Sequence record: LR595863.1
Length of the DNA stretch: 48,141 nt
Direction: 5' to 3' (one strand)
Source of the DNA: Escherichia virus Lambda_4B5
Notes under the pieces: model-generated
The model's database searches: none
What the model was told of the DNA's origin: nothing
The model's input: only the letters and a program-made list of their open reading frames with translations
In this document: piece by piece, positions 43,000-44,676 of the stretch
How the letters are laid out: the number at the start of each line of letters is the position of its first letter
Numbering within the stretch: the first letter of the stretch is position 1
Translations under genes and position numbers: made by a program

Positions 43000-43524
43000 T
43001 TATTGTTTGACCCATAATAGTTCATTGACATTGAATCCCAATTTTTGAGCAGTACGCACATAGTCTGCTTTTACATTATCTGGAATAGTTGGAGTCCGTG
43101 CCAGAATCCATAGGTATTCTCTGTTCGGACCACTGACAAGAGCATACTTATACTCATCATCCAGTTTGATTACATTATAGCCACCATAGAAGGGGCCAAA
43201 AAACGAAACCTTCAACGCTGCAGTTGTATTATCTCCTGTAAAGTATGCTTTACCTTCGCTCTCGCTCCATTTGTTTTTCGTTGGGTCATATCCACGATTA
43301 AGTACACTAATCCCTCCGTCGTTCCGTTTCCCATAAGTGGCGCTGACCTGTTCCAGACCACGTTCAAATCGGTTCTCAAGCCGAGCTATTTCATACCATT
43401 TTCCGAGGTAGCGGTTGGTGTCAAAATTTGTAATCGGCTGCACACCTTTAGGTGGTGTCGGGGCCTTACATGCTATCAGAGTGAAAGAGAGTGCAATGCC
43501 AGTCAACACAGGCCATAACTTCAT
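43000..43524 (-). CDS. blc: Outer-membrane lipocalin (Blc-like lipoprotein)
   Basis: 174-aa protein with lipobox LTLIAC and lipocalin signature (NRYLGKWYEIARL). Confidence 0.8.
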   Translation of the reverse strand: MKLWPVLTGIALSFTLIACKAPTPPKGVQPITNFDTNRYLGKWYEIARLENRFERGLEQVSATYGKRNDGGISVLNRGYDPTKNKWSESEGKAYFTGDNTTAALKVSFFGPFYGGYNVIKLDDEYKYALVSGPNREYLWILARTPTIPDNVKADYVRTAQKLGFNVNELLWVKQ

Positions 43525-43716
43525 AATATATCCTGTACTTTTGATAGTTGAGAGTAAGTATTAAAGATAGATGATTACTACCGATCACCTAAAGAACTTT
43601 CCTACTATATTAGGAATAGTCCATAACAAAAAAATTGTCAGTGATGACGGCAGAAAGGCAGTTTAGGTCGTGTACTACACTGTTAACCTGTTAATGAATT
43701 AGTCAAGGGGTAGGCA

Positions 43717-44676
43717 ATGATAAAAAAACCTGTCGTTGGGATCAGTGGTTGTTTGGCCGGTTCTTCTGTCCGTTTTGATGGTGGTCACAAAAGAGCTAGC
43801 TTTTTAATGGACAAATTACTGGAATGGGTAACATTCAAACCAGTATGTCCGGAAATGGCTATAGGGCTTCCAGTTCCGCGTCCTGCTCTACGTCTTGTTC
43901 GCTCGGCGCAAGGAAATATACGGATGTGTTTCAGCCACGACCAGAATGAGGATGTTACAGAGAAAATGACAGAGTTTAGTCGTTCTTATCTTGACAAATT
44001 AAAGGATGTATCGGGATTTGTGGTTTGTGCAAAATCTCCTAGCTGTGGTATGGAACGCGTGCGTGTATATGATGAAAATGGTAATCGTGGTCGTAAAGAT
44101 GGAGTGGGACTATTTACGAGCACGTTGATGGAAAGGTTTTCCTGGCTACCGGTTGAAGAGGATGGGCGACTACATGATCCAGTGCTTCGTGAAAACTTTG
44201 TTGAAAGAGTATTTGCTTTACATGAGCTCAATCATCTTTATAAAGCGAAATTATCAAGAAGGGAATTATTAGCTTTTCATAGCCGTTATAAGCTTCAGTT
44301 GTTGGCGCATAGCCAGGCCGGTTATAAAGAGATGGGGCCATTTGTGGCTGCAATACATGAGTGGGCAGACCTTGAATCATACTTTGAGGTGTATCGTGAG
44401 AAGCTGATGGCGATTCTCAGAAAACCTGCATCACGTAAAAATCACACGAATGTGCTGATGCATATACAGGGATATTTTAGTAACTGCTTAAATACACGTC
44501 AGCGTAAAGAGTTGAGCGATGTTATACTTAACTATCGAGCTGGCACGCTACCTCTTCTTGCGCCATTAACTTTGCTGAAGCATTACTTGGCAGAGTATCC
44601 TGATGATTATTTGCTTATACAGAATTACTTCCACCCCTATCCTGATGAACTGGCTCTAAGACTCTTGGTGAACTAG
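43717..44676 (+). CDS. DUF523 (TudS-like) / DUF1722 (YbgA-like) fusion protein
   Basis: 319-aa protein with N-terminal Cys-containing region GISGCLAG...CPE and YbgA-like C-terminal half; family assignment from memory only. Confidence 0.55.
   Translation: MIKKPVVGISGCLAGSSVRFDGGHKRASFLMDKLLEWVTFKPVCPEMAIGLPVPRPALRLVRSAQGNIRMCFSHDQNEDVTEKMTEFSRSYLDKLKDVSGFVVCAKSPSCGMERVRVYDENGNRGRKDGVGLFTSTLMERFSWLPVEEDGRLHDPVLRENFVERVFALHELNHLYKAKLSRRELLAFHSRYKLQLLAHSQAGYKEMGPFVAAIHEWADLESYFEVYREKLMAILRKPASRKNHTNVLMHIQGYFSNCLNTRQRKELSDVILNYRAGTLPLLAPLTLLKHYLAEYPDDYLLIQNYFHPYPDELALRLLVN

Follow-up and report, generated by a model that had tools for sequence, protein, structure and literature searches.

Two genes lie between the late-gene antiterminator Q and the lysis side of Escherichia virus Lambda_4B5 (LR595863.1; 48,141 nt, hereafter called the window): a lipocalin gene (blc) and, on the opposite strand, a gene for a protein of 319 aa. 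Why a lambda-like phage carries them at this site, and whether they arrived there separately or together, is the question addressed here. A first-pass annotation of the sequence interpreted the pair as two pieces of host-fitness cargo, independently regulated, with the antisense orientation of one gene as the sign of that regulation. Both genes, and the activity of the exact 319-aa protein, are already known from publications (PMC11417400, PMC6969025), and blc has been reported as a moron in >50% of infant-gut lambdas (Mathieu 2020, PMC6969025). Beyond these two papers, literature searches returned no described link between lipocalin and RudS and no study of prophage DUF1722 proteins. The present analysis adds the recognition of lipocalin and rudS as one unit, its inferred chromosomal origin, its prevalence and genomic slot, and the selection acting on it.

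A three-gene cassette in the Q-holin slot

The window, a complete Jouyvirus genome, matches Lambda_2E9 plus one IS4 insertion. The features of the region are collected in Table 1. Upstream, the Q region is 93.7% identical at the nucleotide level to the quuD region of the DLP12 prophage of K-12, up to position 42825, where blastn homology stops; it restarts at 45883, in the region homologous to K-12 essD and just before the holin S gene, and in DLP12 the intervening slot is filled by nmpC::IS5. From 45894 onward, the window carries the lysis-side genes (holin, lysozyme, Rz and Bor). The GC content of blc and rudS is 0.40-0.44 and that of the AraC-like gene 0.27-0.33, against about 0.50-0.52 in flanking phage genes (nin region). 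Replacement at the same site relative to K-12 DLP12 and a base composition unlike that of the flanking genes are two moron features of the segment. Together, lipocalin, rudS and the AraC-like regulator make up an accessory cassette in the Q-holin slot of a lambda-like temperate phage, in agreement with the earlier placement of the cargo in the post-Q slot, between tR' and an AraC-like gene.

Table 1. Features of the Q-holin region of the window (positions are those of the whole stretch).
Feature	Coordinates	Strand	Basis or remark
Late-gene antiterminator Q (PF06530 type)	42451..42843	+	Pfam E=2.5e-51; upstream border of cargo slot
Exchangeable cargo slot, Q to holin gene	42826..45882		blastn homology to K-12 DLP12 interrupted there
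tR'-like intrinsic terminator	42942..42973	+	Terminator scan and fold; 9-bp G+C-rich stem, then 8 U
blc, Blc-subfamily bacterial lipocalin, predicted outer-membrane lipoprotein	43000..43524	-	174 aa; PF08212, PRK10477
Divergent blc/rudS intergenic region, presumed promoter-bearing	43525..43716		192 bp; 192-193 bp in 80/80 viral contigs
rudS, TudS(DUF523)-DUF1722 fusion, [4Fe-4S] tRNA 4-thiouridine desulfidase	43717..44676	+	319 aa; Pfam; identity to RudS_vir
AraC-family regulator (YdeO/GadX-like), third cassette gene	44986..45726	+	HTH_18 and HTH_AraC; very A+T-rich
Second terminator-like hairpin with T-run, AraC-like gene to holin gene	45788..45815	+	-12.1 kcal/mol, z=-2.05
Holin S (P21 type)	45894..46109	+	PF04971 E=3e-35; first lysis gene, downstream border of slot

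The cassette resembles the post-Q morons of lambdoid phages, such as stx in Stx phages and nmpC in DLP12 (a group in which bor, adjoining the lysis genes, is also placed), in its position between Q/tR' and the holin gene, in being swapped between otherwise homologous prophages, and in that such cargo can be antisense to late transcription. It differs from those that encode a toxin or a porin in that the cargo is an eraser of a tRNA modification together with a lipocalin. Other surface-protein morons, bor and a superinfection-exclusion gene, are among the neighbours of the cassette. In PHROGs, the cassette proteins match phrog_2809, phrog_3275 and phrog_1450, each labelled 'unknown function', and a search of the whole window against Rfam at the gathering threshold yielded the lambda cIII thermoregulator (33658-33716) alone, with no match in the cassette.

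Terminator-like hairpins flank the cassette on both sides. The upstream one follows Q and is located 27 nt past the stop codon of the lipocalin gene, which ends towards it on the opposite strand; it folds with -20.6 kcal/mol (z=-3.4, with 0/200 shuffles as good), is invariant in variants of 89-95% identity and has no U-tail when read on the minus strand. The downstream hairpin lies in a well-conserved intergenic region (distance 0.06). A position for pR' did not emerge from the sequence: the candidate -35 (TTGCTG) and extended -10 (TGTTAGAAT) elements are poorly conserved between variants, and DLP12 shares only short motifs.

The encoded proteins

The lipocalin call of the first-pass annotation was borne out by the domain searches, with a match to Pfam Lipocalin_2 (PF08212, E=2.2e-43) and a score of 315.5 bits, above the cut-off of 267, for the NCBIfam Blc subfamily model PRK10477. 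The protein aligns end to end with the E. coli Blc chains 3mbt/1qwd of the PDB (E=1e-68 to 1e-69). Its N-terminus, read by eye as MKLWPVLTGIALSFTLIAC19-K, has the features of a lipoprotein signal peptide with an L-I-A-C19 lipobox, and the residue at +2, Lys rather than Asp, is one that sorts to the outer membrane. Given 64% identity of the mature protein to E. coli Blc, the phage lipocalin is probably located in the outer membrane and would bind lysophospholipids or fatty acids. It shares with Blc (PDB 1QWD, 2ACO, 3MBT) the NCBIfam subfamily, the approximate length and the lipoprotein signal, but differs in being encoded by a phage, beside rudS, and in its 73-81% identity to a lineage of chromosomal lipocalins whose genes are linked to rudS, including 80% to that of Kosakonia. 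By these comparisons, it is a member of the Blc family and not the orthologue of chromosomal E. coli blc, being phage-borne, linked to rudS and nearer to the chromosomal lipocalins of rudS loci (80%) than to Blc (64%).

The second protein had been annotated as a fusion of a DUF523 and a YbgA-like DUF1722 domain. This is correct as far as it goes: residues 7-149 match PF04463, the '2-thiouracil desulfurase' family formerly named DUF523 (E=3.6e-40, 137.7 bits versus a cut-off of 34.7), and align to the TudS structure 6z92, whereas the C-terminal part matches PF08349 (DUF1722, aa 192-309, E=1.3e-40) and the YbgA model PRK10167 (aa 160-315). However, the protein is more than a fusion of two domains, having already been characterized: it is identical over 319/319 residues to RudS_vir, that is, gp66 of Escherichia phage 1H12 (H3V29_gp66), with which it shares the sequence, the domain order, the cluster ligands and the place in the phage genome. 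Cys12, Cys44 and Cys110, the ligand positions that Table 1 of PMC11417400 gives for RudS_vir, are all present, and Glu46 (CPE), Arg55, Ser107 and Ser109 (SPSC) are spaced from these ligands as are the catalytic E51, R60, S111 and S113 in RudS_KT. Thus, the TudS/DUF523 domain, the fused DUF1722 domain, the three Cys ligands and the catalytic Glu, Arg and two Ser residues of the RudS family were all found.

In RudS, the [4Fe-4S] TudS domain converts s4U8 of host tRNA into uridine, and the DUF1722 domain holds the tRNA (PMC11417400). RudS_vir has been cloned, and its overexpression lowered tRNA 4-thiouridine in E. coli less strongly than did that of RudS_KT (Jamontas 2024, PMC11417400); despite good expression, it was the weaker tRNA desulfidase of those tested, whereas with free 4-thiouracil its lag was the shortest (PMC11417400). 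Free thiouracil would not be the main substrate of the 319-aa protein, and the preference in vivo may be for a substrate other than tRNA s4U. The published treatment of RudS_vir does not include the phage context, namely, the linkage to lipocalin, the post-Q slot and the prevalence in E. coli, which is itself stated to be without RudS (Jamontas et al., NAR 2024, PMC11417400).

The best NCBIfam models for the AraC-like protein are YdeO and GadX, but its scores lie far below both cut-offs, and orthology with either was rejected on that ground. In belonging to the AraC family and having these best models, it resembles the AraC-like prophage proteins that regulate the GAD acid-resistance network (PatE, PsrA and PsrB of EHEC, and AppY of DLP12), which have been described as a class (PMC10877973). 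The gene is present in 76/80 viral contigs, mostly with ~80% amino-acid identity, and is far more variable than blc or rudS (dN/dS 0.25). It was found in none of the chromosomal rudS loci surveyed.

One block with chromosomal relatives

In all 80 viral contigs, blc is encoded on the minus strand 192-193 bp upstream of, and divergently from, rudS on the plus strand; the complete order Q, blc, rudS, araC, holin is retained in 74 of the 80. Both genes are covered over their full length by tblastn in these contigs, except for blc on the contig-end fragment L112. The cassette occurs in 1152 of 5426 complete E. coli genomes (21%). Prophages at the DLP12 and Qin positions carry it, with frameshifted genes and IS3 in the lysis region of the Qin-position prophage; 10 of the 11 records with the cassette in the phage collection are lambda-like (Jouyvirus-type) phages. 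Both genes are intact in the window and in three other copies that differ by 5-8% of nucleotides, from phage IdasGreatGrand and two prophages of E. coli. With dN/dS of 0.07-0.10 (blc) and 0.11-0.14 (rudS), they are subject to purifying selection in prophages, and neither is a pseudogene. dN/dS against the chromosomal homologues is unusable owing to saturation of synonymous sites.

The same divergent lipocalin-rudS pair was found in 19 chromosomal loci from seven genera of Enterobacteriaceae (Kluyvera, Kosakonia, Buttiauxella, Lelliottia, Enterobacter, Raoultella and Huaxiibacter) in an incomplete survey of species-representative genomes located by peptide patterns. In 8 of the 19 loci, an MlrA-like MerR regulator is located between lipocalin and rudS. 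The chromosomal pair adjoins or sits inside an SDR / amine-oxidase / DUF1365 / CFA-synthase-like cluster of the furan/cyclopropane-fatty-acid type. In Buttiauxella, a SnoaL-SDR-amine oxidase-DUF1365-CMAS operon begins with the lipocalin gene and runs divergently from merR-rudS. The same cluster occurs in Klebsiella, Serratia, Pectobacterium and Yersinia with rudS as its final gene. A homologous SDR / FAD-oxidoreductase / UfaM cluster in Pseudomonas is light-inducible under the MerR-family regulator LitR (PMC9758184), as is rudS in the Pseudomonas phrB-litR-rudS locus (PMC11417400); by homology to these, the MerR-linked enterobacterial loci may belong to a light-stress response.

The phage cassette shares the divergent layout with the chromosomal loci, but lacks the MerR regulator and the lipid-modification genes and carries an unrelated, A+T-rich AraC-like gene in their stead. 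RudS of the window is 68-76% identical to the proteins of the chromosomal loci, 76% being the closest found, and the breadth of the distribution suggests a transfer from chromosome to phage. Because of the fixed divergent linkage in 80/80 viral contigs and the divergent pair in 19 chromosomal loci, lipocalin and rudS are one unit rather than the independent cargo of the first-pass annotation. Nor does the antisense orientation of blc, which had been read as a sign of phage-specific regulation, call for such a reading: since the same divergent pair is found in chromosomes, the orientation is probably a legacy of the captured arrangement.

Independent regulation of the two genes was likewise unsupported, with 12 promoter-like matches versus 10.7 expected from shuffles, that is, at chance level. 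Between cassette variants, the 192-bp intergenic region diverges by 0.11 and thus less than synonymous sites in the genes on either side (0.18-0.30); it does not align with the intergenic region of Kluyvera. An MlrA-like TGTAC motif noticed by eye between blc and rudS was dropped, being unconserved among the cassette variants. Overall, the first-pass interpretation is partly supported: the family assignments and the location were right, and the independence of the two genes was not borne out.

Proposed role and alternatives

The explanation that in our judgement probably accounts for the whole is that the captured lipocalin-rudS block is host-fitness cargo in the Q-holin slot and that RudS is, in addition, made late. 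A lambdoid phage would have taken the block from a chromosomal photo-oxidative or light-stress locus, with loss of the MerR regulator. In the lysogen, the lipocalin gene, and perhaps rudS, would be expressed as host-fitness genes from putative promoters in the 192-bp region; the lipocalin might deal with outer-membrane lipids that are damaged or in lyso form, and RudS, by taking the UVA-sensitive mark off tRNA, would blunt the growth delay caused by UVA. Once the prophage is induced, RNA polymerase modified by Q would read from pR' through tR', antisense over blc and then in sense along rudS and the AraC-like gene, into the lysis genes. As the late transcript crosses rudS in sense, we propose that RudS is also produced late in lytic growth.

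Because this Q-dependent transcript has to pass through rudS, in sense, on its way to the lysis genes, RudS may have a part in lytic growth, and rudS may be a phage function, although the first-pass annotation counted neither gene as one. In its stronger form, to which we give a real but minor chance, this would make RudS mainly an auxiliary function of lytic growth that erases host tRNA s4U, so that UVA cross-links do not slow translation once sunlight or UV has induced the prophage, or salvages thiolated uracil or 4-thio-UMP, a reading that overlaps with benefit to the lysogen and does not exclude it. That rudS lies past tR' and ahead of the lysis genes, without a further late promoter in evidence, and that the phage lacks the MerR regulator of the chromosomal loci, is consistent with it. 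UV induces lambdoid prophages. UV also cross-links s4U8, and RudS_vir combined the shortest lag on 4-thiouracil with tRNA activity below that of other RudS proteins (PMC11417400). However, the persistence of the intact cassette under purifying selection in DLP12- and Qin-position prophages points to a benefit for the lysogen. A further extension, which we regard as rather unlikely, couples lipocalin and RudS as a portable 'light / photo-oxidative stress kit', lifted from a MerR-controlled regulon, deprived of its regulator and placed under phage control: Q-dependent late RudS would reset host tRNA (s4U8 to U) in lysis triggered by UV or sunlight, sustaining translation for the phage, and in lysogens the pair would shield both membrane and tRNA, in the ~20% of E. 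coli strains concerned, otherwise without RudS.

The remaining alternatives appear much less plausible. That the lipocalin and the DUF523/DUF1722 gene are unrelated morons, separately acquired and independently regulated, with the opposite strands as a phage regulatory design, is a disfavoured and very improbable reading; the 192-bp gap could indeed hold two promoters, and antisense cargo is common in the Q-holin slot, nmpC of DLP12 being an example, but the invariable linkage and spacing in the viral contigs and the divergent pair in seven genera argue against it, as does the similarity of blc and rudS in GC and in divergence between cassette variants, from which the AraC-like gene differs in both respects and in its chromosomal absence. 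Outer-membrane lipoproteins that exclude other phages are common in lambdoid phages, and the position of the cassette among surface-protein morons (bor, the superinfection-exclusion gene) would fit a module for defence or superinfection exclusion, in which the lipoprotein masks a phage receptor like Cor or Llp and RudS alters tRNA against incoming phages or a tRNA-directed toxin. We consider this even less probable, given that none of the three cassette proteins has a match in PADLOC-DB, that the pair is conserved in ordinary non-phage chromosomal contexts beside lipid-modification genes, and that Blc-family proteins are lipid binders according to their PDB names. Finally, IS insertions or split annotations in some E. 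coli cassettes (rows H37-H39, H41, H54, H56, H62 and H65) might suggest decaying hitch-hikers or pseudogenes devoid of current function. The chance of this is negligible in view of the near-complete full-length tblastn coverage in the viral contigs, the dN/dS of 0.07-0.14 and the presence of all RudS catalytic residues; for the copy of rudS in the window, decay is refuted outright by the published activity in E. coli of the identical RudS_vir (PMC11417400).

The finding is of modest weight and mainly of interest to specialists. It places RudS, stated to be absent from E. coli, in about one-fifth of the complete genomes of this species, always as prophage cargo. The conserved lipocalin-RudS block, with its MerR-linked, light-stress-like chromosomal relatives, offers a testable hint on the physiology of bacterial lipocalins, and the sense orientation of a tRNA-modification eraser in a lambdoid late operon makes the notion that a phage may reset host tRNA after UV induction an easily testable one.

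Identity of the lipocalin and RudS proteins

The first-pass annotation had described a lipocalin gene and a DUF523/DUF1722 gene between tR' and an AraC-like gene, and its observation was confirmed overall, for ORFs, domains, neighbours and terminator alike. The six-frame ORF list returned both genes at exactly the coordinates it had given, and domain searches upheld both family calls. For the 174-aa protein, the matches are Pfam Lipocalin_2 (E=2e-43) and, at 315.5 bits versus a curated cut-off of 267, the NCBIfam subfamily 'outer membrane lipoprotein Blc'; the 319-aa protein carries PF04463 (2-thiouracil desulfurase, formerly DUF523; aa 7-149) and PF08349 (DUF1722; aa 192-309), each with E of about 1e-40. 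The ORF list and Pfam likewise bear out the neighbours, in the order RusA, Q (PF06530), lipocalin, rudS, AraC-family gene, P21-type holin, lysozyme, Rz and Bor, and a strong intrinsic terminator fits the placement of tR' on the Q side of the lipocalin gene.

Features of the cassette and of other parts of the phage genome
Feature	Position	Strand	Details
IS4 element	19039-20464		14-bp target duplication CACCAGAAATGGTG at 19025-19038 and 20465-20478
IS4 transposase ORF, 448 aa	19052-20398	-	Nterm_IS4 and DDE_Tnp_1 domains
sitABCD operon	about 23.2-26.6 kb		Lambda_2E9 21756-25205
Lambda_thermo (Rfam)	33658-33716	-	cIII thermoregulator, 88.5 bits
Intrinsic terminator	42942-42973		between Q and lipocalin gene 3' end; 9-bp stem and 8 U; -20.6 kcal/mol, z=-3.4
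Lipocalin ORF, 174 aa	43000-43524	-	six-frame ORF list
TudS-DUF1722 ORF (rudS), 319 aa	43717-44676	+	six-frame ORF list
Candidate promoter site	44721-44748	+	10/12 consensus matches
Candidate promoter site	44772-44744	-	10/12 consensus matches
AraC-like gene	44986-45726	+	27-33% GC
Terminator-like hairpin	45788-45815

The 319-aa protein is identical at 319/319 residues to gp66 of Escherichia phage 1H12, the gene for which was synthesised as 'RudS_vir' (Jamontas et al., NAR 2024, PMC11417400), and is already characterised under that name. RudS proteins, TudS-DUF1722 fusions, act as [4Fe-4S] desulfidases and strip 4-thiouridine (s4U) from tRNA, the TudS domain being catalytic and DUF1722 binding the anticodon region (PMC11417400). 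In E. coli, the growth delay caused by UVA was reduced when RudS_KT was overexpressed. RudS_vir, although well expressed, lowered tRNA s4U less than RudS_KT did; with free 4-thiouracil, its lag was the shortest (PMC11417400). All residues essential in that study (Cys12/44/110, Glu46, Arg55, Ser107/109) are present in the window protein, and alignment with the TudS crystal structure 6z92 recovers the same motifs. The earlier assignment to the family that includes thiouracil desulfidase was correct but outdated, the substrate being tRNA s4U by identity to RudS_vir (PMC11417400).

An alignment of the phage lipocalin with structures of E. coli Blc extends over the full length (E about 1e-68), with only 64% identity to E. 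coli Blc in the mature part. Its N-terminus, MKLWPVLTGIALSFTLIAC-K, contains lipobox Cys19 followed by Lys at +2. The residue after the lipobox Cys predicts lipoprotein sorting (the +2 rule), and the protein is therefore predicted to be an outer-membrane lipoprotein. In biochemical terms, the identity of both products is established. The subject is not new: this very RudS protein has already been assayed, and Mathieu et al. (2020, PMC6969025) had named blc among the morons, in over half of their lambdas. What is added here is the block structure, chromosomal ancestry and prevalence of the cassette, together with a proposed expression logic.

Linkage, prevalence and selection

A search of IMG/VR with RudS returned 80 viral contigs (92-100% identity). 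In every one of them the lipocalin gene lies 192-193 bp upstream of rudS, on the opposite strand, and 74 of the 80 preserve the full order Q, blc(-), rudS, AraC-like gene, holin. Ten records of these lambda-like phages, from infant-gut E. coli, contain the 3-kb cassette at 99.9-100% identity; the copy in phage IdasGreatGrand is 89% identical. This linkage speaks against independent acquisition of blc and rudS, which is disfavoured. Two short contigs binned in a 'Candidatus Nanosynbacter' (Saccharibacteria) MAG, L054 and L073, carry the cassette at 88-97% amino-acid identity and are almost certainly a binning contaminant.

Among the complete genomes of E. coli, 1152 of 5426 matched the cassette (683 with a coverage of at least 80%), nearly always on the chromosome; it sits in prophages at the DLP12 and Qin positions, among others. 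The statement that E. coli is without RudS (PMC11417400) is true of K-12 but not of the species. Homology to K-12 DLP12 stops at 42825 and restarts at 45883, with nmpC::IS5 between, so that the exchangeable slot spans 3.06 kb. IS insertions inside the cassette occur in a minority of E. coli genomes. That its genes are decaying is refuted by selection on them, with dN/dS among cassette variants of 0.07-0.10 for blc, 0.11-0.14 for rudS and 0.25 for the AraC-like gene, and by the published activity of the identical protein. Among the same variants, the blc-rudS intergenic distance (0.11) is below that of synonymous sites (0.18-0.30), whereas the rudS-AraC spacer (0.29) is not more conserved than these sites.

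The complete genome of a lambda-like phage (Jouyvirus) makes up the window. It is 99.99-100% identical to Escherichia virus Lambda_2E9 across the full length and differs only by a 1,426-bp IS4 insertion that separates the gpJ-like tail gene from the side tail-fibre gene. On the stretch from the tail-fibre genes to the integrase gene, the phage carries a further cargo block, the sitABCD manganese/iron transporter operon, which runs antisense to the structural genes. Lambda_thermo is the sole Rfam match in the window.

Chromosomal relatives of the cassette genes

Species-representative genomes yielded 72 chromosomal rudS loci, whose RudS proteins share 45-76% identity with the phage protein. A divergent lipocalin gene, its product 73-81% identical to the phage lipocalin, accompanies rudS in 19 of these loci, from seven Enterobacteriaceae genera. 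In Kluyvera, the two genes are immediate neighbours (gap about 113 bp), flanked by rplY and by a helicase gene akin to E. coli radD/yejH; in Kosakonia, Buttiauxella, Lelliottia, Enterobacter and Raoultella, an MlrA-like MerR regulator lies between them. The Buttiauxella lipocalin gene is the first of a SnoaL-SDR-amine oxidase-DUF1365-CFA-synthase-like operon, and in Klebsiella, Serratia, Pectobacterium, Yersinia and others rudS closes the same cluster, after DUF2878 and DUF3833. On Enterobacterales chromosomes, rudS is found in or beside this conserved amine oxidase, DUF1365, CFA-synthase-like, DUF2878 and DUF3833 cluster (rudS loci L005, 1253-6957, and L008, 1-6957, and many others). A homologue of this cluster is the furan-fatty-acid cluster of Pseudomonas, which is light-inducible; there, the homologous SDR/FAD-oxidoreductase/UfaM cluster and rudS belong to the light-inducible regulon of LitR, a MerR-family regulator (PMC9758184; PMC11417400). 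We infer that the phage pair derives from such a light or photo-oxidative-stress locus, with loss of the regulator; the antisense orientation of blc would therefore be inherited, not designed.

The AraC-like gene, present in none of the chromosomal rudS loci examined and far more variable among cassette copies than blc and rudS, is a separate acquisition. Its best models are YdeO and GadX, which would place it in the same class as PatE, PsrA, PsrB and AppY, prophage regulators whose action in E. coli rewires acid resistance and type III secretion. Just past the rudS stop, in an A+T-rich spacer, two candidate promoter sites stand face to face; the AraC-like gene may be driven from one of them, and transcription from the other would enter rudS in antisense.

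Proposed transcription through the cassette

The first-pass annotation took the arrangement of the two genes to suggest independently regulated host-fitness cargo. Promoter consensus matches occur at chance level, and we infer the expression logic from gene arrangement. Because the lysis genes lie downstream and no other late promoter was found, Q-modified polymerase starting at pR' would have to cross the cassette. It would read through tR', cross blc in the antisense direction, transcribe rudS and the AraC-like gene in sense, and then pass the second, terminator-like hairpin, which would also halt lysogenic cassette transcription ahead of the holin gene. The lipocalin could be expressed only from a promoter of its own, presumably in the lysogen.

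A function as a defence module finds no support either from PADLOC or from the chromosomal contexts. As the late transcript would run sense through rudS, RudS is expected to be made late in lytic growth regardless of its own promoter. The architecture of the cassette is compatible with a primarily lytic role of RudS, and also leaves room for a lysogenic one.
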